The notes under the pieces are model-generated. The model had not been told where the DNA came from, did not search any database, and was given only the letters and a program-made list of their open reading frames with translations. Of a stretch of 64,000 nt of DNA, positions 1 through 63,481 are shown piece after piece. The stretch comes from an uncultured Thermoleophilia bacterium (GTDB lineage: Bacteria > Actinomycetota > Thermoleophilia > UBA2241), in NCBI GenBank assembly GCA_963715985.1, contig CAVQSP010000017.1, forward strand, positions 32,001-96,000, written 5' to 3'. Position 1 is the first letter of the stretch; each line of letters opens with the position of its first letter. Made by a program: the position numbers and the translations under genes.

Positions 1-246
1 GTGCGCCACCACTTCGATCGCTCCGCCTGGGGTCTGCTGTGCGGAACCGCGCTCTTGTCGCTCTACGTCGCCTATGTGCAGCGCAAAGGACCGGGCACAG
101 TGTCCTGGCACACGGCCACGGCGAGTGGCTCGAGCACCTACATGGACCCCCGCCCCTGGCTGGTCGCCGGCTTGCTGCTCATTGTGGTCGGCGTCGCTGC
201 CTTTCTCTGGCGCGGGCGCAGCGTTAGCGACAACGCAGCGAGGTAG
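1..246 (+). CDS. Small membrane protein, probably 5'-truncated by the window edge
   Basis: Two hydrophobic segments (WGLLCGTALLSLYVAYV; WLVAGLLLIVVGVAAFLW); stop at 244-246. Confidence 0.55.
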   Translation: MRHHFDRSAWGLLCGTALLSLYVAYVQRKGPGTVSWHTATASGSSTYMDPRPWLVAGLLLIVVGVAAFLWRGRSVSDNAAR

Positions 247-400
247 TAAGTCCAAGCGGAGTGATTCCGATGGAGGCGTGACCGAGCCTCTCAGAGAAGA
301 CCTCTAGGTGCACGCCGGTACACACCAGCATCGTGGCATGGTCGTGGCACAGGTCACGGGCGACGCTCAGAGTGAGTCCGGCTCGTCGGCAAACGCCCGG
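245..400 (-). pseudogene. Tyrosine recombinase/integrase C-terminal remnant
   Basis: RDLCHDHATMLVCTGVHLEVFSERLGHASIGIT resembles the HDLRHxHATxL..GVHxKVVSERLGHAxIxIT box II consensus. The following LDLY motif is frameshifted, the catalytic H/R positions are degenerate, and there is no N-terminus. Confidence 0.75.
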
Positions 401-524
401 CAAACGAACGCAACGCCACTCCGCAGTCCTCACCATCACTTGCTGACACTCCGGCCCTGCTCCCCACGCTCAGGATGGCATTCAGCGGCACTTCGCGGTA
501 CCTCCTAACACATTAGTGGACGCG

Positions 525-569
525 TTTGCACGGCGGAGGTCAGGGGTTCGACTCCCCTGCGGTCCACCA
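525..569 (+). repeat. tRNA-Ala 3'-half fragment (att-like), copy 1
   Basis: TTTGCAC anticodon loop, GGCGG, AGGTC, T-arm AGGGG-TTCGACT-CCCCT, acceptor strand GCGGTCC (U70), A-CCA. No 5' half is present. Confidence 0.85.
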
Positions 570-912
570 CTGATTCTCAAGGAAATCGTCGCCTGTAAGC
601 CCCCCGCGCGACCCGCGTACCCGCCGTCTGCCACCATTCTGCAACCCAGAACCGTGCGTAGGGTTGGCGTGCTTGGACGTGCGCCTGGATGGCACGCATT
701 GGGACGCCTTGGGACGAAACGGGACTACTCCCCCACCTGGCGGGTATCGCCAAGAGACACGCGACTCCTGACATGAGCGATGCTCAACACGGGAGGCTCT
801 GGTCCGCCGGCGGCACGTTGCGGCCACCGCAGTCCGGCGGGGAGCCACCGGCAGGCTGGTCCGCTGGCCGGTCTTCGTTCTTGCCGGGACCGGGCCCTAT
901 GGGGCCGAGGGG
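570..912 (+). repeat. Conserved element arm following the tRNA fragment, copy 1
   Basis: TCTGCCACC/TCTGCAACC at 627/638, GGGAC at 701/711/721, and a GGCTC..CCGCCGG..CCGGCGG..GAGCC hairpin; homologous to 3890-4108, 6074-6250 and 62770-62954. Confidence 0.85.
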
Positions 913-1260
913 CCAGAGGGACAGAAGGGGGTGCCGCTTGGGAGAGCCCATCGCGTCAACCTGATGAGCCGTGTCCCTGCGGCACACCGCTCGTGGCCCG
1001 CCTGCGGTGGCAAGCCGGCTCGTGCTGCCCGCGTCGCCCTCGACGGCCGCTGTCGACGATGCCCAGCCTCCCGGCACCGCGCCCTTGGAGAAGGCCGAAA
1101 GCTGCGGTCTGGCGCCGAGCAGAGCGAGAGAGGACAGCACGACACGCGAGCCGGCGGCGCCCTTGGCCGAGCGTTCCCGATCATCGCGCCATCGCTGCCC
1201 AGGCTTCTGAGAGCCGCTCGCGACGAATCATGTGGGAGCCATGCAGAAGGGGGAGACGAC

Positions 1261-3485
1261 ATGAAGAAGCCAAGCGAGAAGCCGAGCCTGCTGACGGTGC
1301 TGGCATTGGCGCTGGCTGCGGCGCTGCTGGTACTCGCCATCGCGGCGCCGCGGGCGGCCGCGGGTCCGGAACTCCGCGCGGCGCCGCTGAATCCGGCCTT
1401 CCTGCGGTCCCTGGTCAGTCCGCCCGTCGGTGCGCCGTGGAGCGCAGCCGGCGGCCACGGCTTCGGCGAAACGCCCGGCCCGCAGGACATGTCCTACACC
1501 CGCGGGATGCAGGTGTCCGGCGCGAGCGAGCTCGGGACGCCGCCGGCGACCTACGACCTGCGCACGCTGGGCAGGGTCACCACGGTGAAGGACCAGGACC
1601 CGCACGGCACCTGCTGGGCGTTCGCCTCATTGGGCTCGCTTGAGTCCTGCCTCCTGCCCGGCGAGACCTCGGACTTCTCCGAGGACAACATGATCCTCCA
1701 GAGCGGCTTTGACGCCGGTGGTGACCCCTATGAGCACGGCGGCCAGCTCTGGAAGGCCACCGCCTACCTGGTCCGTTGGGGCGGCCCTGTGAACGAGAGC
1801 GAGGACGCCTATGGGGACCGCACTACGCCGCCAGGCCTGACCCCGCGCAAGCATGTGCAGGAGGTCGCCTGGATCCCCCTTCGTGGCTCGGCGCTCGACA
1901 ACGACAATGTCAAGAACGCGATCATGCGGTACGGCGGCGTCCATGTCTCGATGAGCTGGCCCGGCAGCACCGCGGGCGACTCCTCCTACAACCCTGCGAC
2001 GGCGAGCTACTACTACAACGGCAGCTCGGGCATCGACCACTCAGTCCTCATCGTCGGCTGGGACGACAACTACTCGGCCGCCAACTTCGCCACCACGCCG
2101 CCGGGCAACGGTGCCTTCATCGTCAAGAACAGCTGGGGCGCAGGGTGGGGCAGCAACGGCTACTTCTACGCCTCCTACTACGATTCCAGGTTCGGCCGCG
2201 AACAGCTCATGGCCGTGTACAACAGCGCGGAGCCCACCAGCAACTACACCGGCATCTACCAGTACGACCCCCTGGGTGACTGCAGCGAGATAGGGTATTC
2301 GAGCTCCACCGGGTGGTTCGCCAACGTCTTCACCGCCCAGACGACTGCAAGCCTGAGCGCCGTCGGCTTCTACACCCTGTCTCCGGGCACGAGCTATGAG
2401 GTCTACTCCGGCGCCAGCCTCGCGACCAAGACGCTGCGCACGAGCGGCACGCTGGCCTACATGGGCTACCACACCGTGACCCTGCCCTCAGCGGTGGGCA
2501 TCACCGACGGCCAGTCCTTCGTCGTCGCCGTGAAGGTCACGTCGCCCGGAACGACCTATCCGATCGCCTTTGAAGTCCCGATCGCCGGCTACGACTCCAG
2601 TGCCGCCACGGCGCAAGCCGGGCAGAGCTACGTGAGCTCGACCGGCTCGACGCTGGACGGACCTGACGACCCGCCACAGCAATGCCAACGTCTGCCTCAA
2701 GGCGTACACGACCGGGTCGGGCCCGCCCCGACGCCCACGCCCACGCCGACACCCACGCCCACGCCGACACCCACGCCGACCCCACGCCGACGCCCACGCC
2801 CACGCCGACGCCCACGCCGACGCCGGGCAGCGACGACGACATTCCCGGAGTGGCCATCCCATCGTCGCCGTTCACCGGGACCGTCTCCCGGGACGCTGAC
2901 CTGGACGACGTCTACGAACTCACGCTCAACAGCGGACAGACGCTGGAAGCGAGTATCAAAGGGCCCGCCGGCAGTGATCTTCGTCTCTATCTGTACGCGC
3001 CCGGCTCGGCGAGCGTCAAAGACCCAGACACGCCCTACGTGGCGGTGGCCCACGGCGCTTATCCCTGCAGCTTCACGTACAAGGCCACCCAGAGCGGCGC
3101 CTACTACCTCGACGTCTACGACTACGCGGGCGCGGGAGGCTACACGGTGACCTACTCCGTCACCTCGCCCACGCCCGGCGACACTGTCGGTCCCGTGTGT
3201 GCCGCGAAGAACGTCATCGTCAAGCGCGGCAAGACCTGCAAGATCTACTTCAAGGTGCGTGACGCGCTCAGCATGCTGGTGACGACTCATGTCGCCATCA
3301 CCACCGACTCCGGGATCGTCAAGAAGAGCTGGTCGTGGGGCTACGGCGTGAACTCCGTCGACTGGCGGTGGGCCAACTACACCTGCCGACTCGCCAAAGG
3401 CACCTACCACATCGTCGTCACGGGTGAGGACCTCGCCGGCAACAGGGCCAGCGTGGTCGGACGGGCCACGCTGAGGGTGAGGTAG
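1261..3485 (+). CDS. Secreted papain-family (C1A) cysteine peptidase with lectin-like domain, Pro-Thr linker, PPC-like domain and C-terminal beta domain (three apparent frameshifts at about 2653-2790)
   Basis: Signal peptide; QDPHGTCWAF, DHSVLIVGW and KNSWG catalytic motifs. WTDLTTRHSNANVCLKAYT appears in a shifted frame; the gene continues in ORF 2682-3485. Confidence 0.85.
2725..2826 (+). repeat. Coding (Pro-Thr)n tandem repeat
   Basis: ccgacg/cccacg hexamer array. Confidence 0.9.
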
Positions 3486-3889
3486 GGGACGTGCGCCAAG
3501 GCGGGCGGGGCAGACGCAGGGGTCGCCCGCCCGGGGCGGAGGTGGGGGGTCTTCGAGAGTCGGGTCACCGGCCCTTGGGGAACGGCCCGGGTCGCCCCTG
3601 CCGAGCACATGAGCGAGATTCGTGTGACGCGAGTGCCGCGCACGAAGCCGGTGACTGACGCCCACGGATCCCCCCGAGGGACTCGGAGATGGTTCTCGCC
3701 AGCCACCAGGCCGAGCTCACCCAGGGTAGGGCGAGGGGCGCCGCCGATCACGAGGTGCGCGTCAACACGGGCAGCACGCTGCTGCTCGAGAAGACCGTCC
3801 TCACGAAGCGCTCGTGGAAGAGCAGCGCGGCGCTGCCCACGAACGTCGCTCTCCTGGAGGGTGCGGGCCGGAAACGTCGCCGGCGATGC

Positions 3890-4108
3890 CGGGGGGTCTC
3901 GTGGGGACGAAACGGGACTACTCCCCCGCCTGCCGGGTATCGCCAAGAGATACGAGATTCCTGACATGAGCGGCGCTCAGTACGGGAGGCTCTGATCCGC
4001 CGCCGGCACTTTGCGGCCACCTTCATCCGGCGGGGAGCCACTGGTGAGGCCCGCGGGCGGGCCGGTCTTCGTGCCTTCCAGGACCGACAGCCCGGGGGGC
4101 CAAGGGGC
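3890..4108 (+). repeat. Conserved element arm, copy 2 (distal part)
   Basis: GGGACGAAACGGGACTACTCCCCC...GGGTATCGCCAAGAGA...TCCTGACATGAGCG...CGGGAGGCTCTG...CCGGCGGGGAGCCAC is shared with 711-849. Confidence 0.9.
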
Positions 4109-4132
4109 AGCTGAGGAAGGGGGCTGCGCGGG

Positions 4133-4570
4133 ATGACCAGGATCGAGAGGACCATCGAGATCGAGGCTCCGGTAGAGGAGGTCTTTGATTTCGTCGCTGA
4201 CTGGCGCAACAAATCGAACTGGTACGTAGGAGTGCTCGATTGGAGACCCACGACCGAGCAAACAAGGGGAGTGGGTGCACGGTTTGTCTTCAAGACGAAG
4301 TTCATGGGCATGCACCCCGAGACAGAAATGGAGACCCGCGCCTTCGTCGACAACCAGAACATCGAATACGTGTCGATCAGGGGCACCGACTTGAAGCGCC
4401 AGGTGCTGTTCGTGTCCCTGGACAACCGCACAGAGGTCACGGACATCTCCGAGTACAGGCTCCCGATGTCTCTCCTGGGTGACTTGATAGATGCGCTGTC
4501 GTTCCGGCGCCGGCAGGAGCGGCGCGCCGAGGAGTCCCTGCAGAAACTGAAGAGGCTGACGGAACACTAG
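4133..4570 (+). CDS. SRPBCC (polyketide cyclase/dehydrase-like) family protein
   Basis: IERTIEIEAPVEEVFDFVADW N-terminus; C-terminal SLQKLKRL helix. Confidence 0.85.
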   Translation: MTRIERTIEIEAPVEEVFDFVADWRNKSNWYVGVLDWRPTTEQTRGVGARFVFKTKFMGMHPETEMETRAFVDNQNIEYVSIRGTDLKRQVLFVSLDNRTEVTDISEYRLPMSLLGDLIDALSFRRRQERRAEESLQKLKRLTEH

Positions 4571-5125
4571 ACTGCTCTTTCGCCCCGCGGTCGCGATACT
4601 CGACGGTTCCGTGTCTCATCGAAAGGGGCCGACGCATCCTTTCGGGCGGCGGCCTGCAGCGTCACCGAGGCGGGCGTCGCCGCCCCGCCCGCCGGTTCTC
4701 TCTGAGCTCCGCGTCGATCCTCGCCGCGGCGACCGAAGCGACGAAGGCGACCGATCCCGCCGACCCCTCCGTTCGTGTGAAGGGACACGGGCGGAAAACC
4801 ACGTGTCGCGGCACCCGGACCGTGTCCCGGGCCTCCCGCATTGGGTCTCGGGCACAGGCGTGACCCCCAAGACAGAATCGACAGACCCGACGATCCGATC
4901 CGATCTGTGGCCTCCCGGCGATGCTGTCACCGACTCGCCAGAGCCGCCGTCAGCTCGTGTCGACCTTCTGCGCGGCTTCCCATGTCTCCGCGCCGCGCCG
5001 CACGCAGCCAGCAGGCGCCCGTTGCGCCGGCCGCTCGTCGGCGTCCAACGGCCACGGCGAAGAAACGCCCCCCTCGCTCAGTCTGTAGTGGCGGAGAGGT
5101 ATCTCCAACGACACGGGGAGGGGAC

Positions 5126-5989
5126 ATGGATGCCACGCAGTCCACCGAGCGGCGTTCCGCCGCAGGCACCTGGACGATCGCGCTCGTCGTCCTGCTTCTG
5201 CTGTGCGCGAGCGCGCTCGTGACCGCCTGCGGCGGCTCCGGCGGACAGGCAATGGGTTCGGCGCCTCCGGCAGCTTCGCCGAGCACGGCCCAGTGGGACT
5301 ACGTCGTGCTGGGGGACTCCGCCTTCGCCGCGCCGGACGGCTCGACGACGGTGGCGCACGCCCAAGCGCGGCTGATCAAGCGCGACCTCGGCGTGGACAC
5401 GAAGGTCTACTGGGCCTACTACCCGGGCACGACCAGCGCGCGCATTGCTGACGAGCTGCGCTACGACAAGCGGCTGCGCGAGGCGATCCGCACGGCCGAG
5501 GTGGTGCTCTTCGACGTGCCCGTCGGCGAGCTGAAGCAGACCGTCCCCTTCGACATGACGGCGTACCAGCCCCTCCCCGGAAGCCCGGAGAGGTACCGCA
5601 AGGGCATGGCGCGGATGCTGGTGGACTACCGCAGGGACGCAAGGGCGATCGTCAACGCGATCGTCTCCCTGCGCAGCCCCGACGAGGCGAGCATCCGGGC
5701 GATCGACCTCTGGCAGCTGGGCTACCCGGGGTTTCGCAAGATGGGCCTTGGCGCCGTCATGCGCACGGCCTGGCTCCGCATGAACAGGGCCGTCGACGAG
5801 GCGTGCGCGGCGCAGGGCGTGACGGTGGTCGACGCCTATGCGGCGTTCATGGGGCCTGACGGCAGGACGGACCCGGTCGCCGCCGGCAACATCCTGCCCG
5901 ACCAGATGCACCTGACGGACAAGGGCATGGCCACGCTCGCGGAGCTGCTCAACGAAGCAGGCTACGCGGAGATCGCCCCGACGCCGTAG
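5126..5989 (+). CDS. SGNH/GDSL hydrolase lipoprotein
   Basis: Lipobox VTACGG; VVLGDS block I; DQMHL block V. Confidence 0.8.
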   Translation: MDATQSTERRSAAGTWTIALVVLLLLCASALVTACGGSGGQAMGSAPPAASPSTAQWDYVVLGDSAFAAPDGSTTVAHAQARLIKRDLGVDTKVYWAYYPGTTSARIADELRYDKRLREAIRTAEVVLFDVPVGELKQTVPFDMTAYQPLPGSPERYRKGMARMLVDYRRDARAIVNAIVSLRSPDEASIRAIDLWQLGYPGFRKMGLGAVMRTAWLRMNRAVDEACAAQGVTVVDAYAAFMGPDGRTDPVAAGNILPDQMHLTDKGMATLAELLNEAGYAEIAPTP

Positions 5990-6031
5990 GCCAAGGGACG
6001 CCTCCTGGAAGGCCTGCCATACCTCAAACCG

Positions 6032-6250
6032 GCACGGCGGATGTCGGCGGTTCGAACCCCATGCGGTCCACCACTGATTCTCAGGGTGATCGTCACCTGC
6101 AAGCCCCCGCGAGACCCCCGAGCCGGCCGTCTGCAGCCATTCTGCAACCCAGATCCGTGCGCCTGGGTGGGAGTAGCTGGCGCTCGCTGCGGCCAAACGG
6201 GACTACTCTGGCGCCCGCGGGGAACCCCATTCGAAGTACGCGACTCCTCA
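6032..6250 (+). repeat. tRNA-Ala 3' fragment plus element arm, copy 3
   Basis: GCACGGCGGATGTCGGCGGTTCGAACCCCATGCGGTCCACCACTGATTCTCA...TCTGCAGCCATTCTGCAACCCAGA...AAACGGGACTACTC...CGCGACTCCT. Confidence 0.85.
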
Positions 6251-6299
6251 GGTGGTCGTCCATCCCAGGGGTCACGGGCCACGGAGCTGGGGGTGGGTC

Positions 6300-6941
6300 A
6301 TGGCGAGCCTCACGAAGGCCAGCCGAGAGGTCGCAGCTGTCGTCGCCCTGGCACTGAGCCTGGTGCTCTCTGGCCGCCTGCGGTGACTCGGGCAGCCCGA
6401 CCCCGACCCGCCCCTCGACCTTGCCGACGCGGAGCACCCCCGTCCCGGCCTATTCGTTCGACCCTGGGTCCGGCACCACCGCGGGCCTTCAGTAAGAGCA
6501 CGGACGGCCTGGAGTTCGTGCCCTGGGTCGACATGGAGGTCAGTGCGCTTGGCTACTGCGACGCCGGTGGGGACGGGCTCCTGAACTCGCACACGGTCGG
6601 CATCTTCGACACCGACACCAAGGAGCTCGTCACGCCCACCGTCGTCGTCGACAGCGAGAGCGTTCTGGACGGCTCCTACCGCTACGAGCCCATCACGCCG
6701 GTGGTCTTGAAGGAGGGCAGGTCCTACATGGTGGCCGGCGACTCTGAGCCACCCTTCGACCCTGTGGCTTTCGACCCTGTGGCGGGGGGCGGGAGCCGCA
6801 ACTGGGCGCCCGAGATGCGGTTCGTCGGGCACAGCGAGAGCTATGGCGACTTCGAGTTCCCAGGGTACGCGGAACCGGTACTTGTGGATGGCCCCCAACT
6901 TCAAGTTCATGCCGGTCCCGGCCGCCTCGCCCGCGCAGTAG
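6300..6941 (+). CDS. Lipoprotein with DUF4082-like beta domain (frameshifted)
   Basis: MASLTK..VVALALSLVL then AACGDSG in a shifted frame; GLEFVP..VSALGYCDAGGDGL..HTVGIFD..GSYRYEPITPVVL; ends WMAPNFKF...* in another frame. Confidence 0.6.
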
Positions 6942-6989
6942 GCAGTCGCTGGCCGACCGGCGCATCCGCGCTCTTGTCCCGACGGTGCC

Positions 6990-7110
6990 GCACGGCGGAG
7001 GTCAGGGGTTCTACCACCTGCGGTCCACCAGCACTTGCAGGTACATCGCGTCCTGTGGGCCTGCCGGGAGGCCCCCGCAACGGCCCTTTGCGACCATCCT
7101 GCATCCCAAC
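6990..7110 (+). repeat. tRNA-Ala 3' fragment plus short arm, copy 4
   Basis: GCACGGCGGAGGTCAGGGGTTCTACCACCTGCGGTCCACCA, then TTTGCGACCATCCTGCATCCCA (degenerate paired motif). Confidence 0.8.
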
Positions 7111-7336
7111 GCCGGTCGGGAAGGCGCCTTCGTCTCGGCGATGTCCTATCCGTCGGCGTGCCCGGAGATCGGCAGAGTGATGGTAAGAACGTCATCGCGA
7201 TGGTGCGTTGCTCAGGCCACGCCGGCCTCTCCAGCCGATGCCACTTCGACGGCCGTCCCGTTGCCATTCCAACCGCGCATTCACTTCCTCCTGTAGGGTA
7301 GCTGGGTAGCGGGCTCCGAGTGAGATCGGACTGCGT

Positions 7337-8200
7337 ATGAGCACTCATGGCTTCGGCAGTGCCATCATCCACGTGGACCACCTCTCCAAGCACTACGGCG
7401 ACGTGCGTGCGGTCGACGATGTCAGCTTCGACGTGGCCGAGGGCGAGATCCTGGGACTCCTCGGCCACAACGGCGCCGGCAAGACGACGACCATCCGCAT
7501 GTTGACCGGGCGCGTCCGGCCGACAAGCGGCCACGCACGCATCGCCGGCCACGACATCATGCGCGAGCGTGAGCACGTGAAGCCGCTCATCAATCTGGTG
7601 TTCGAAGAGCAGAATCTCTACGAGCGTCAAACGGGCCGCGAGAACCTGGAGCTGTTCGCCAAGCTCTACGGCGCGCCGTCGGCTCGCGTCCCGGAGCTTC
7701 TCGAGCGCGTCGGCCTGACGGACGCCGCATCCCGCAAGGTCAGGACCTACTCCAGCGGCATGAAGCAGCGGCTGCTCATCGTCCGCGCGTTGGTGAACGA
7801 TCCTCGCGTCTTGTTTCTCGACGAACCGACCAAGGGCCTGGACCCGTCATCGGCCCGTGACGTGCGTGGCATCATCCGCGACCACGCGCGCGCCGGTGCC
7901 ACCATCTTCCTCACCACGCACTACATGGAAGAGGCGGACGAGCTGTGCGACCGCGTCGCCTTCCTGGCAGCGGGCGTGATCGTGGCGCTGGACACGCCGC
8001 GTGAGCTCAAGCTCCGTTATGGCGAGCGCACCGCCACCGTCCTTCTGCGCGACCGGTCGGAGCACGAGATCCGTCTTGACGACGGCGGGGACGCAGCCCG
8101 TCTCGAGGCGTGGATGGCCGCCGGTGAGGTGCTCACCGTGCACTCCAACGAGGGCACCCTCGAGGATGTCTTCGTGAATCTGGCCGGGAGGCCCCTGTGA
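7337..8200 (+). CDS. ABC-2 type transporter ATP-binding protein
   Basis: GHNGAGKT, YSSGMKQR, LFLDEPT, TTH motifs. Confidence 0.95.
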   Translation: MSTHGFGSAIIHVDHLSKHYGDVRAVDDVSFDVAEGEILGLLGHNGAGKTTTIRMLTGRVRPTSGHARIAGHDIMREREHVKPLINLVFEEQNLYERQTGRENLELFAKLYGAPSARVPELLERVGLTDAASRKVRTYSSGMKQRLLIVRALVNDPRVLFLDEPTKGLDPSSARDVRGIIRDHARAGATIFLTTHYMEEADELCDRVAFLAAGVIVALDTPRELKLRYGERTATVLLRDRSEHEIRLDDGGDAARLEAWMAAGEVLTVHSNEGTLEDVFVNLAGRPL

Positions 8201-9288
8201 ACGTCGCGCGCGTCAACGCCATCTACCGCAAGGATCTGCGCGATGCGCTGCGTGACTCGCGCCTCATCATGGCCATCGTCATGCCGTTGCTCATCGGCCT
8301 CCTCTACAGCTTCATGTTCAAGGACGACACGAGGCCGGCGGCCAAGCTCGGCGTCGTCGCGTCGACGTCGACGCGGTTGCCCGTCGCTCTTCAGGCGGCG
8401 ACGAAGGCGGCCCTCCAGTTGAAGGTCCAGTCCTTTGGCGATGCAGCGGCACTGACCCAGCAGGTACGAGACGAGAACGTGGACGTCGGGCTGATCATCC
8501 CGGACGGCTTCGACGCGGCGCTGACGAGCGGCGCGTCGCCGAAGCTCACCGTGATCCTGCCGGCCTCGCCGAGCTTCGGCGGTGACTACGTGGCGGCGGT
8601 CCTCGACCGGGTGACGCAGGCGCTCGCGGGGCAGGTGCCGGCGGCGACCATCGCGCGGGTAGTGCTCCCCGCCAGGGCCGGGACCTCTGCATCAGCATTC
8701 GAGACGCTCGGCGCGCGGAAGGGCTTCGTGCTCGTCGCCGTCATCCTCATGCTCGCCATGATCGCCGTCTACGCGCTGCCCGCCGTGCTCACCGAGGAGA
8801 CCGAGAAACGCACCGTGGAGGCGCTCACTCTCATCGCTTCCGACGCCGAAGTGATCATCGCCAAGTCGCTGTTCGGCCTCACGTACTGCCTGATCTCCGT
8901 GCCGCTGATGCTCGTGATCACCCGCGTGGTCCCCGAGAACGTCCTGCTCTTCGTCGTGGACGTCGTGCTGACGTCGGTGGCCCTGGTCGGCCTTGGTCTG
9001 CTGCTGGGTGGGCTCATGCGGACGCAGACGCAGCTCAACACCTGGAGCAGCGTCGCCTTGATCCCCCTGATCGTCCCGGCCATCATCGTCGGGCTGCCCG
9101 TGCCCGGCTGGGTCGAGGCCATCGTGTCCGTGCTGCCCACGGCGCAGACGATGCGGCTTGGGGTGAACGCGCTGGCGGGCCGCCAGCTGTTTGGCGCGGA
9201 GTGGCTCTCGATCGCGATCATCGTCGGCTGGGCGGTCGCCGCCTACGGCCTCGTCTGGTGGCGGCTGTCGCGCCAGGAGGCGGCCTGA
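8197..9288 (+). CDS. ABC-2 type transporter permease
   Basis: Overlaps the ATPase stop; multiple TM segments; EETEKRTVEAL motif. Confidence 0.9.
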   Translation: MNVARVNAIYRKDLRDALRDSRLIMAIVMPLLIGLLYSFMFKDDTRPAAKLGVVASTSTRLPVALQAATKAALQLKVQSFGDAAALTQQVRDENVDVGLIIPDGFDAALTSGASPKLTVILPASPSFGGDYVAAVLDRVTQALAGQVPAATIARVVLPARAGTSASAFETLGARKGFVLVAVILMLAMIAVYALPAVLTEETEKRTVEALTLIASDAEVIIAKSLFGLTYCLISVPLMLVITRVVPENVLLFVVDVVLTSVALVGLGLLLGGLMRTQTQLNTWSSVALIPLIVPAIIVGLPVPGWVEAIVSVLPTAQTMRLGVNALAGRQLFGAEWLSIAIIVGWAVAAYGLVWWRLSRQEAA

Positions 9289-9424
9289 CGGCCTTGCCTC
9301 GGCGATCGTGTGACTGGCACGCCAGGGCCGATGCGCGGCTCGCAGCAGGCGGTCCTCAGCATGAACGTTGGAATCGAGCATCAGCTTGGGAACACTCCAT
9401 GCGTCCAGCGCGAAGGAACGGACA

Positions 9425-10234
9425 GTGAGAGAGCTACGACTCGGCGGCCTGCGGATCGCCTACACGCAGGCGGGTGACGGCCCGCCACTCGTCCTGCTGC
9501 ATGGCGGCATGGAGGACAGCCGCACGTGGCGCCGGCAGGTGGACGGTCTCGCGGACGAGTTCACCGTGCTGGCCTGGGACGCGCCCGGCTGCGGCCGATC
9601 CTCGGATGTGCAGGAGAGCTGGCGTATGCCTGAGTATGCGGACGCGCTGGCCTCGTGGCTCCGCGCCACGGGGATCGAACGCCCACACGTCCTCGGCCTC
9701 TCCTGGGGAAGCTCCCTGGCGCTCGAGCTGTACCGGCGGCATCCGCACGTGCCTGCGTCGCTCATCCTGGCCTCGGCCTATGCAGGATGGGCGGGCTCCC
9801 TCTCTGCGGAAGAGACCGCGGGACGCCTCGAGGGCATCCTCGCCGTGGCCGACCTGCCACTCGAGGAGGTGCTCGAGGCAGTCCCCGGGGTGCTCAGCGC
9901 CGGTGCCCCATCGGGCCTGCTTGAAGAGCTGACGGCCATGTGGGCGGACAACACGGGCAGCAGGAAGCCCGGCGGATTCCGGGCCATGGCGCACGCGATG
10001 GCGGAGGCGGACCTCCGCGACGTCCTTCCCCGGATCGAGGTCCCGGTGCTCCTGCTGTACGGAGAGCTCGATCAGCGATCGCCGCTGAAGGTCGCCCACG
10101 AACTCAACGAGCGGATCCCCGCGTCGAAACTCGTCATCATCAGGGGCGTCGGTCACGCGGCGAACGTGGAGGCACCGGAGGAGTTCAACGCACACGTGCG
10201 GACGTTCATCCGGTCGGTCATTCGGAGCCCGTGA
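9425..10234 (+). CDS. Alpha/beta fold hydrolase
   Basis: LVLLHGG, WDAPGCGRS, GLSWG nucleophile, GH..NVE. Confidence 0.9.
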   Translation: MRELRLGGLRIAYTQAGDGPPLVLLHGGMEDSRTWRRQVDGLADEFTVLAWDAPGCGRSSDVQESWRMPEYADALASWLRATGIERPHVLGLSWGSSLALELYRRHPHVPASLILASAYAGWAGSLSAEETAGRLEGILAVADLPLEEVLEAVPGVLSAGAPSGLLEELTAMWADNTGSRKPGGFRAMAHAMAEADLRDVLPRIEVPVLLLYGELDQRSPLKVAHELNERIPASKLVIIRGVGHAANVEAPEEFNAHVRTFIRSVIRSP

Positions 10235-10518
10235 TCCCTGGGCTGCAGTCCATATGGTGTCGGCTCTGCCGCCGGCATCTGCGCCGACGCACAAGCTGGG
10301 CTACCGGATCGAGGGACGGGAAGCAGCGAGGCGAGGAGGGTCAGGAGCTCGCTGCGGCACGGGCAGCAGGCGCCACAGGCAGGCGACTGGCCTGGTCCAC
10401 GGACCACGCCGCACCGACAAACAGCCGCCGCCGTGTGTTCGAGGCGTCGGTGGGTTGGTCGCCCGAGCCGGACCGGCGATCAGGTGTGGTCCGTCAGCGG
10501 CCGCCGACGTTGCCGACG

Positions 10519-26335: not shown

Positions 26336-26947
26336 ACCCGGACGATCACCGACCTGCCACGCTGGGCGTCACGGTTCGGCGACCGTCTGAGTGGGTGCGG
26401 GTCGCTGTCTGGTCTGGAGCCGCAGTCGGCGCTGAATGGTGGACCCGAGCGCAGGCGCGTCTACACTCGCGCCCGGCGATGCGCGCGCGGGGCCTTGGCG
26501 GTGACCTGCGGCAGGGCCATCGGGCGCCGCGCGCCAGACTCGCAGTGATGAGCCAGAGCGGCGCGACGACCGCCAGGCCGGCGATGCCGCCACCGATGAT
26601 GGCGGCCGACTTGCCCATCCGGCCCGTTTCGTTCGCGCTCATGAGTCCCCCTCGATGATCCCGTCTCCGCGTGGCGGCGCCGCGCGATGGAGTCATCACG
26701 GACGACCCTCCGAGGGCATCATTGCGCTCGGGCCGGCGTCGTCTCGCGGCCGACTCTGCCCAAGCCGTGTGAGCATCCGGTCACCTCCGTCGGCCCCAAT
26801 CCGTCCGGGCGACTGCGGTCACATCGGCACATCGCCCGCAACGAGGCTGGCGGCTGCCTCCGAAGAGGGGTGGGCAGGCTGGTCAGGCATGCCGTCTCCT
26901 CAGACCCGTGGCGAGATGTCTGCCTGCACCGCGTCAGACCCGCGCGG

Positions 26948-62729: not shown

Positions 62730-62954
62730 TGCAGTGCGGGGGTCGGGGGGTTCGACCCCCCTGCGGTCCCGATCCGTACGAGTGTCCGCGCGACTTGACG
62801 CCGCCAGCTGGGATGCGCTGGGACTCAACGGGACTAGTCCGTCACCCCCAGGGTACCCGAATCAGAGAGACCACTCCCGAGAAGAACAGCGCACGCACGG
62901 GACGCTGAGGCCCGTCGGAGGCACCTGACGGCCACCCTCATCAGGCGGGGAGCC
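62730..62954 (+). repeat. tRNA-Ala 3' fragment plus element arm, copy 5 (diverged, internal deletion)
   Basis: TGCAGTGCGGGGGTCGGGGGGTTCGACCCCCCTGCGGTCC...TGGGATGCGCTGGGACTCAACGGGACTAGTCC...GGGTA...CACGGGA...GGCAC..CGGCCACC..GGCGGGGAGCC. Confidence 0.8.
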
Positions 62955-63187
62955 GGCACCGACGATCATGGCTGCACCGAATCCACTGCACATCCCCACC
63001 CGCGCGTGGAGAGAGTCCACGATCCCGACATCGACCTGCGGCGACGCCACGTTCGCTGGGCGCACGGTGGCCAAGGGGGTGGTGTGGCGACGAGACGATC
63101 CCTGAGATCAGACACGACGATAGACAGAGGCCGTCGCTGCGGTGCCGATGCCGGCCTGTGGCGGTCCATGTGAAAGGAGTGGGTGAC

Positions 63188-63481
63188 ATGCCGATGTACG
63201 TCGGGCTGTACAAGCTGACCGAGAAGGGGGCCAGCGACATCAAGGGCTCCCCCGAGCGTCTCCAGCAGGCGATGAAGGCCTGGGAGGCGATGGGCGGCAA
63301 GATCATCGCGGTCGTGGCCACGATGGGAGAGTACGACTTCGTGAGCGTCGGCGAAGCGCCGAGCGACGAGGTGGCCGTCATGCACGCTGCTGCCGTCGCC
63401 TCGACGGGGACCGTGACCACCCAGTCGCTCCGGGCGTTCAGCCCGGAGGAGTTCGCGGCGCTCGTGGCCAAGCTCCCGTGA
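63188..63481 (+). CDS. GYD domain protein
   Basis: TMGEYDFV..EAPSDE..TQSLRAF. Confidence 0.85.
   Translation: MPMYVGLYKLTEKGASDIKGSPERLQQAMKAWEAMGGKIIAVVATMGEYDFVSVGEAPSDEVAVMHAAAVASTGTVTTQSLRAFSPEEFAALVAKLP

Follow-up and report, generated by a model that had tools for sequence, protein, structure and literature searches.

Repeated tRNA-Ala 3' halves bounding small integrase-less units in an uncultured Thermoleophilia bacterium: a probable tandem accretion array

The window, by which we mean the whole stretch of 64,000 nucleotides analysed here (contig CAVQSP010000017.1, hereafter C17), comes from an uncultured Thermoleophilia bacterium and carries, near its left end, a row of same-orientation 3' halves of tRNA-Ala, each followed by a conserved element that we term B. 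We consider it likely that this region is a tandem accretion array of small, integrase-less islets, derived from tyrosine-integrase elements that recombined in the anticodon loop of tRNA-Ala(TGC). A first-pass annotation of the same DNA had described four copies of one module and proposed an integron-like gene-capture platform. Repeats were indeed found in all four places, but two repeat families lie side by side in copy 1, and separating the attachment (att) scar from the riboswitch leader avoids a false call of a new integron.

The source is a long-read metagenome-assembled genome (MAG) of 4.35 Mb (bin 88.8% complete, 7.3% contamination) with probable indel errors. C10, C11 and C8 are further contigs of this genome, G-numbers denote genomes of relatives, and window position 246 corresponds to C17:32246. 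Comparisons were made with 36 genus and 24 non-genus genomes, and wider searches with 54 genus genomes (53 others). Array architecture was read from stretches of about 20 genus genomes, while the metagenome data are contigs from four public runs, at contig level only. Since tblastx synteny was dominated by high-GC noise, only matches to the N-terminus of the GDSL gene were kept from it. The features of the array are as follows.

260..527, minus strand: remnant of a tyrosine integrase gene (C-terminal part), whose 5' truncation coincides exactly with the tRNA fragment (260-394 visible to tblastn; 396-527 termed the L-arm)
528..572, plus strand: tRNA-Ala(TGC) 3' half, copy 1, forming the att core and reaching from the anticodon loop to CCA (profile 56.7 bits, E 8.8e-15)
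573..700, plus strand: element B, copy 1, a conserved stretch that begins directly behind the tRNA, with a tandem 11-bp direct repeat at 628-648 (alignments and 21-nt core search)
701..930, plus strand: riboswitch leader, copy 1, with a weak c-di-GMP-II-GAG-type aptamer (783-868), a hairpin (853-874) and a ribosome-binding region (RF03169, 23.2 bits, below the gathering score)
931..3485, plus strand: C1A papain-family peptidase with lectin-like and PPC domains (Pfam Peptidase_C1, Lectin_like, PPC; two frames, 931-3150 and 2682-3485)
3894..4110, plus strand: riboswitch leader, copy 2, aptamer 3976-4060, with neither tRNA fragment nor B (RF03169, 40.0 bits, equal to the gathering score, E 3.9e-5)
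4133..4570, plus strand: SRPBCC gene (Pfam Polyketide_cyc2, E 1.9e-11)
4841..5989, plus strand: SGNH/GDSL hydrolase lipoprotein gene (Pfam Lipase_GDSL_2, Lipase_GDSL)
6032..6076, plus strand: tRNA-Ala 3' half, copy 3 (profile 42.1 bits, E 3e-10)
6077..6250, plus strand: element B, copy 3 (tandem repeat 6131-6151), and the start of a leader whose riboswitch aptamer is missing (repeats, 21-nt core)
6301..6941, plus strand: lipoprotein gene with signal peptide and lipobox SLAAC, DUF4082-like by homology (open reading frame pieces; three frameshifts, near 6368, 6486 and 6866)
6990..7031, plus strand: tRNA-Ala 3' half, copy 4, with damaged T arm (profile 40.4 bits, E 1.1e-9); a weak B-like stretch follows to about 7127

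Tyrosine-integrase islands in tRNA genes are classed by the sublocation of the crossover, the anticodon loop being one such place. The three tRNA pieces in the array fit this sublocation, as had been proposed: their homology to the tRNA-Ala(TGC) that ARAGORN finds in relatives of the genus runs from the (T)TTGCAC of the anticodon loop, via variable loop, T arm and acceptor strand, to CCACCA, and all three were recovered (E 8.8e-15 to 1.1e-9) by a profile built from tRNA-Ala 3' fragments and run against the whole 4.35-Mb genome. An origin of the halves as att-type scars of anticodon-loop recombination is supported. They are direct repeats of one another (86% between 528-604 and 6032-6108; 84-96% among 528-552, 6032-6056 and 6990-7014), and copies 3 and 4 begin 42 bp and 48 bp past the preceding stop codons at 5989 and 6941, in agreement with the 40-50 bp noted earlier. 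The remaining repeat, copy 2 at 3890-4108, matches only the leader at 701-916 and contains no tRNA piece, so that the supposed single module resolves into two families. Genome-wide, the profile found eight copies, six on C17 and two on C10; the five beyond those above lie at C17:4487, C17:6135, C17:94736 (window 62736), C10:295170 and C10:301760, and a ninth match (E 0.0042) is a different tRNA-Ala gene.

Each tRNA half is followed by element B (573-700, 6077-6208 and, weakly, 7032-7127), which is about 130 bp long and contains, some 48 bp in, a 21-nt core formed by the pair of 11-bp repeats. Searched with up to two mismatches, this core occurred 123 times in 38 of the 54 genus genomes, and the reversed control pattern not once. 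Among 20 perfect copies picked without regard to context, 17 lay about 48 bp after genes or 3' fragments of tRNA-Ile(GAT) (five intact, four fragments) or tRNA-Glu(CTC) (four of each), and three stood without a tRNA; of the eight Ile and Glu fragments sampled, four begin in the anticodon loop and four at the variable loop or T stem. Related elements that use different tRNA targets and have B as their element-side arm would be expected to give such placement. The passages of PMC3203893 on phage attachment sites (attP) of actinobacteriophages describe 11-bp repeat pairs flanking the core as predicted arm-type sites, and the simplest reading of B would make it the element-side arm of a family of integrative elements using three tRNA targets.

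The same arrangement is widespread in the genus. The first-pass annotation had proposed a search with 525-912; a search with the 392-nt module matched 33 of the 36 genus genomes as against 2 of the 24 outside the genus. In most of the genus stretches read, one to four same-orientation 3' halves stand behind an intact tRNA-Ala(TGC), or there are fragments alone; spacing within arrays ranges from 0.5 to 26 kb, with many gaps of 1-3 kb. Intact tRNA-Ala(TGC) genes head the arrays of G002, G006, G010, G011, G021, G064 and others, while G007 and G031 (both at least 98% complete) have a single copy, which is the tRNA itself. Between tRNA and fragment, relatives carry Metallophos (1.25 kb), YCII with radical SAM (2.7 kb), DUF6092, nitroreductase, SBP and TetR (4.7 kb), or Fer4 with Pyr_redox (4.8 kb), and no integrase was found in the units of these four. 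Cargo thus differs between the same repeats, and several breakpoints of inter-genome homology fall within 1-200 bp of a fragment. For example, one 2-kb block begins 63 bp past the last fragment in G064, 203 bp past it in G020, 1.4 kb in G006 and 2.4 kb in G002. In G002 a fragment precedes the start of a Fer4 (ferredoxin) gene by 41 bp, and in G006 the gene's end comes about 105 bp ahead of one; a search with an nhmmer profile for degenerate fragments flanking this gene in G002, G006 and G021 found none. Other arrays of the genus contain larger units, some with intact integrases of the same family. Decay of tandem islands, which the annotation had set against its own proposal, is therefore partly borne out, given these larger units and the integrase remnants present in several arrays. 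The two other observations that it had named as refuting, a cargo order fixed across relatives and breakpoints lying apart from the tRNA fragments, were not made.

The window itself contains such a remnant beside copy 1, as had been recognised. On the minus strand, 260-394 matches integrases of its own genome by tblastn (58% over 45 amino acids, E 3.6e-11; 66% over 32 amino acids, E 2e-10), with the region around the catalytic boxes kept; Pfam PF00589 alone detects 260-385 at E 0.875, and the remnant amounts to about 45-90 codons. Because full integrases align contiguously across 396-527, the L-arm is decayed integrase coding sequence, and the same alignment ruled out an alternative in which it represents the promoter and start codon of an integrase that suffered an in-frame internal deletion. 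We also rejected an integrase split by the module, with its N-terminus to the right on the minus strand: tblastn returned low-complexity noise only, and no long minus-strand open reading frame crosses 528-930. The source genome has 15 matches to PF00589, of which the only one on C17 is the remnant at 260-385, and Pfam found no integrase in the selected open reading frames between 1 and 12000. In five array-bearing genomes, none of 47 PF00589 matches fell within the array stretches examined, where tblastn shows remnants only. Two more short remnants were seen, at window 26398-26526 (minus strand) and C17:29431-29541 (plus strand), 56% and 78% identical to integrases of the source genome.

The junction of remnant, 396-527, fragment and B recurs at 74-88% identity in 10 of the 53 other genus genomes and is multi-copy within genomes, with up to four L-arm matches in one of them. 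The genomes that share it are the closest relatives, with 81-87% identity in the non-coding junction and 89% in rpoB (84% for G004). G025 (C1; L060 13969-14571) contains a second, independent remnant that is likewise 5'-truncated, at a different codon, exactly where a tRNA-Ala fragment has its left edge. Other arrays (G075:C17, G073:C5, G025:C8) contain intact integrases of the same family, among them one of 392 amino acids in G075; these are 48-57% identical to a 458-amino-acid integrase of the source genome, which lies at C11:128783 beside a tRNA-Ser and is 66% identical to the window remnant over 32 amino acids. An autonomous parent element with the same two ends was not found in the stretches examined.

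Two units in the window are bounded by fragments, 528-6031 (5.5 kb) and 6032-6989 (0.96 kb). Their only genes are those for the peptidase, the SRPBCC protein, the GDSL hydrolase and the lipoprotein, and Pfam detected no integrase, primase, helicase or polymerase domain in either; the first-pass annotation had likewise reported units without integrases, and its naming of the first three products agrees with Pfam (Peptidase_C1 and Lectin_like, Polyketide_cyc2, GDSL). The fourth, which it had called a DUF4082-like lipoprotein in a unit of less than 1 kb, has no Pfam match of its own, but a DNA-level homologue in G009 carries DUF4082 (E 9e-12). Metagenome contigs are one base shorter at each of 6368, 6486 and 6866, and many genes upstream of the window are also split in the assembly (Pfam-annotated open reading frames), so the frameshifts in this gene are probably assembly errors; further one-base differences between window and metagenome contigs occur at 4853, 6237 and 7016. 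In the GDSL gene a lipobox-like LVTAC lies near 5198-5230, and the true start is probably downstream of 4841. The peptidase gene contains a Pro/Thr-rich tandem repeat (2705-2824, periods 18 and 12) at the point where its reading frame changes.

Taken together, we propose the following history for the array. Each integration would regenerate the tRNA from the element's own 3' half and displace the earlier half downstream, so that repeated integration would yield a row of 3' halves such as the one seen here, each followed by the left end of an element, namely B. The latter probably carries arm-type integrase sites, the promoter region of the first cargo gene, or both. Integrase genes would have stood at the right end of the elements, in antisense, and would later have been deleted or have decayed, the remnant beside copy 1 being one that is still visible. 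The leftover att-flanked units of 5.5 and 0.96 kb would then resemble cis-mobilizable elements (CIMEs), unable to move alone; at most, a related integrase encoded elsewhere could move them in cis or in trans. The riboswitch leader and its gene are the first cargo after B in one family of units.

Several observations sit uneasily with this proposal. The array in the source MAG is not attached to a canonical tRNA-Ala: at default settings ARAGORN reported 54 tRNAs in the bin, none of them on C17 and none a tRNA-Ala(TGC), and the flank upstream of the relatives' tRNA-Ala maps to other contigs. Only at a relaxed threshold does a near-intact tRNA-Ala(TGC) appear; it lies 28 kb upstream of the window (C17:4453-4528), carries G33 and has a mismatch in its T stem. 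Of the two genes that the first-pass annotation had proposed to locate, an intact tRNA-Ala stands at the head of relatives' arrays and has only this atypical candidate in the source, and intact integrases of the family occur in other arrays and, in the source, beside the tRNA-Ser on C11. With 7.3% contamination, rearrangement and mis-binning are inseparable from biology at this locus of the source genome. The proposed mechanism does not account for the truncation of remnants exactly at the fragment, seen in two independent forms. Of 10 genomes inspected, 7 have a similar repeat pair ahead of the tRNA-Ala promoter, on its upstream side, and this would fit a transcription-factor site equally well. 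Fragments of tRNA-Ala also occur downstream of tRNA-Ile (on C10 of the source genome and in G075), which simple serial integration at tRNA-Ala does not predict; they need homologous recombination between B copies, or composite elements, and their presence in tRNA-Ile arrays indicates exchange between arrays, plausibly through B. Finally, contigs of the four metagenome runs, which constitute a weak test, contained no excised circle, empty site or within-population presence/absence variant.

The same null result, with the same weakness, bears on the view closest to that of the first-pass annotation, that the array is a working gene-cassette system whose non-autonomous, att-flanked cassettes continue to be excised and inserted in trans, the integrase being encoded at another place in the genome or brought by an incoming element. 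Many units are too small ever to have been autonomous (0.5-3 kb in G002, G004, G014, G020, G027, G064 and the window), the 21-nt core of B is perfectly conserved across many species, and full-length integrases of the same family exist both in the genus and in the source genome (458 amino acids, C11:128783). The non-coding junction, moreover, is 81-87% identical between species whose rpoB genes are 84-89% identical and is multi-copy in genomes, which suggests constraint, or spread after the integrase was lost. Nevertheless, the junction is confined to the closest relatives, as vertical descent would also give, and no near-identical unit was found at two places, the best matches between genomes (89-94%) being about as similar as rpoB. 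On the core's left side, furthermore, lies decayed integrase coding sequence with shared stop codons and no obvious arm. We therefore regard a working cassette system as unlikely, and current mobility in trans as possible but rather improbable. Two metagenome joints, 574->6142 (one contig, with 34 letters on the short side) and 806->4012, link paralogous copies of the repeats, which makes them indistinguishable from mis-alignment, and they were not used as evidence of excision. At the loose ends 526 and 521, contigs with a full tRNA 5' half are joined to a similar 3' half, and may belong to other organisms. An extension of the same idea to the whole genus is doubtful in our estimation: integrase-less mini-cassettes of 0.5-3 kb sharing arm B, with its invariant 11-bp repeat pair, would be shuttled in trans among the anticodon loops of tRNA-Ala, tRNA-Ile and tRNA-Glu, many with a riboswitch-gated promoter for a secreted protein, in a system of single-gene exchange analogous in function to integrons.

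Conversely, the array might owe nothing to repeated integration, with one old scar of fragment and B having been copied together with riboswitch-regulated genes by unequal crossing-over and gene conversion between repeats of B and of the leader. Both of these repeats are dispersed, and at 130-220 bp and 80-86% identity they are long enough to recombine homologously; the tRNA-Ala fragments in tRNA-Ile arrays speak for such a process. Riboswitch-regulated genes for exported proteins, DUF4082 paralogues among them, and the same two-component system also occur upstream of relatives' intact tRNA-Ala, so that the genes in the window could be rearranged native neighbours. Duplication does not, however, predict that fragments of three tRNAs should share one architecture, with four of the eight sampled Ile and Glu fragments starting in the anticodon loop, that integrase remnants should abut fragments, or that the cargo between repeats should be unrelated from one genome to another. 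All of these are predictions of site-specific integration, and recombination alone appears to us very unlikely. Tandem accretion at tRNA-Ala(TGC) thus remains the explanation that we favour.

The second repeat family has a different character. The leader copies are 86% identical (701-851 against 3894-4044), and in copy 1 the aptamer overlaps at its 3' end with a terminator-like hairpin (853-874) that has a T-rich tail. They resemble RF03169 in matching its full covariance model and in sitting in 5' leaders, and differ in that copy 1 of the window reaches only 23 bits and in that the aptamer forms part of a repeated leader about 220 bp long. The source genome has six RF03169 matches, of which three reach or exceed the gathering score and the strongest has 62.4 bits; those outside the window are:

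C11:8727-8816: RF03169 copy
C11:136856-136945: RF03169 copy
C10:295399-295486: RF03169 copy
C10:298257-298346: RF03169 copy

Loci from ten relatives (148.5 kb) gave 14 matches at or above the gathering score (44.8-72.9 bits), and the family is present in 21 of the 36 genus genomes and 4 of the 24 others, with up to nine copies per genome; in G034 seven copies fall within one 30-kb stretch. Genes right after riboswitch copies mostly start with a signal peptide or lipobox, and among their domains are SnoaL, esterases, cytochrome c, PD40, DUF4082 and TIG. As this link to exported proteins holds both within arrays and outside them and, in G006 and G009, also upstream of the intact tRNA-Ala, the bias of the window's cargo towards export tracks the riboswitch and not the att sites. 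The first-pass annotation had attributed an enrichment for exported proteins to the att units; the riboswitch leader explains it, and relatives' units carry cytoplasmic enzymes. Judged from its sequence, the leader is that of a lineage-specific regulon, a c-di-GMP-II-GAG-type riboswitch with a terminator-type platform, predicted to switch genes for secreted proteins and lipoproteins, and it is unrelated to recombination. To our knowledge, the ligand of the c-di-GMP-II-GAG variant (RF03169) has not been established.

For B, a role as operator or promoter would fit equally well. It lies about 150 bp before the riboswitch in several genomes and directly before lipoprotein genes. An OmpR-type response regulator and a histidine kinase (C17:29619-32246) stand directly to the left of the array; Pfam assigns Response_reg and Trans_reg_C to the former (C17:29619-30335) and HATPase_c, HisKA and HAMP to the latter (C17:30339-31997). 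In G021 and G009, kinase homologues are found upstream of the intact tRNA-Ala at a distance of about 5 kb, for which reason copy 1 may mark the native tRNA-Ala locus, and the tandem 11-bp repeats of B could be the binding site of the adjacent OmpR-type regulator. B was also considered as a structured RNA and rejected as such, its consensus fold reaching only -2.3 kcal/mol with almost no covariation. Further B cores of the source genome lie at C10:289975, C10:305589 and C8:178894, and in four genomes two copies of the core are exactly 254 bp apart. Searches of viral contigs with the B-core and tRNA-half patterns gave no match for either.

The neighbours of the array, and one distant fragment within the window, complete the feature list.

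1..246, plus strand: 3' end of the histidine-kinase gene, the left neighbour of the array (response regulator gene upstream of the window)
7337..9288, plus strand: ABC transporter, ATPase and ABC-2 permease (Pfam), the right neighbour of the last fragment
62736..62954, plus strand: degenerate tRNA-Ala half (62736-62769; profile 24.6 bits, E 9.5e-5) and riboswitch-like stretch (62896-62954)

At this last site the riboswitch-like stretch lies 130 bp past the half and a small gene (63158-63481) follows. Some 1.6 kb past the near-intact tRNA-Ala at C17:4453-4528, a fragment starting at the variable loop (C17:6135-6168) precedes hairpin-containing DNA of low GC. An alpha/beta-hydrolase gene right of the array (9345-10274) is 89% identical to a gene of G027; in both it lies 2.3 kb past a tRNA-Ala fragment, with unrelated DNA in between, and it looks like a shuffled single gene. 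A search for sigma-70-type promoters in 200-7400 found none, where 0.6 were expected from shuffled sequence, which is uninformative for a high-GC lineage.

These observations describe the organisation of the flexible genome in a Thermoleophilia lineage that is abundant in soils and wetlands yet uncultured, in which three tRNA genes act as docking sites and most of the docked DNA no longer has a recombinase of its own. The multi-copy regulon of the riboswitch variant could assist in finding its ligand. If mobility in trans were demonstrated for the small units, this would suggest that the exchange of single genes at tRNA genes is under-described.

Among known systems, integrons share with the window the same-orientation units of one or two genes separated by repeats that resemble recombination sites. 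Here, however, there is no intI or other integrase at the head of the array, tRNA halves take the place of attC hairpins, and the cassettes are not promoterless, having leaders and promoters of their own instead of the common promoter Pc. The window departs from integrons on every criterion testable here, and the integron-like platform proposed by the first-pass annotation is not upheld. Closer parallels are found in Prochlorococcus, whose islands contain tycheposons, partial tRNAs and fragmented integrases from older integrations, according to the parts of bioRxiv 10.1101/2020.12.28.424599 that describe them. In that description, too, several tRNAs serve as targets, full and partial tRNAs flank the elements, older elements are pushed inward, and cargo takes the form of plug-in cassettes; tycheposons are defined there by an integrase and a replication module, neither of which is present in the window or the arrays examined. 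In Dehalococcoides, tandem islands are bounded by ssrA repeats, and fifteen without an integration module were interpreted as possible CIMEs in the portions of PMC3146451 devoted to them. As in our arrays, those islands stand in tandem downstream of one small-RNA gene, with direct repeats of its 3' end, extra conserved bases beside the repeat and an att site touching a recombinase gene. As reported in the same portions, they have a 20-bp repeat of transfer-messenger RNA (tmRNA), a large serine recombinase at the left edge and rdhA cargo, whereas the present arrays have a repeat of about 45 bp from tRNA-Ala, tyrosine-integrase remnants at the right edge, and riboswitch-controlled exported proteins together with assorted enzymes as cargo.

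The nearest model is that of CIMEs and tandem accretion as outlined for ICESt1 and ICESt3 of Streptococcus thermophilus. In the scheme for integrative conjugative and integrative mobilizable elements (ICEs and IMEs), as presented in the relevant sections of PMC5704250, integration is succeeded by decay to a CIME that keeps the left and right attachment sites (attL and attR), and by renewed integration into the regenerated site. The likenesses to what is outlined there are attL and attR copies of the 3' end of the target, the loss of genes for integration and transfer, stacking in tandem, and integrase remnants. The units 528-6031 and 6032-6989 are, as CIMEs are, bounded by att sites and free of integration and transfer genes, and an origin by deletion fits the integrase remnant and the deletion junction shared by 10 of the 53 genomes, while no autonomous parent with the same ends was found. 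No conjugation or mobilisation genes were seen, and we call the units CIME-like. Tandem, att-flanked units without integrases at tRNA or tmRNA genes have thus already been described as CIMEs or tandem accretion, so far as these portions of PMC5704250 and PMC3146451 go. What distinguishes the present case is its host, an uncultured Thermoleophilia bacterium, a core that spans the tRNA from anticodon loop to 3' end, and the size of many of its units, which measure only 0.5-3 kb.

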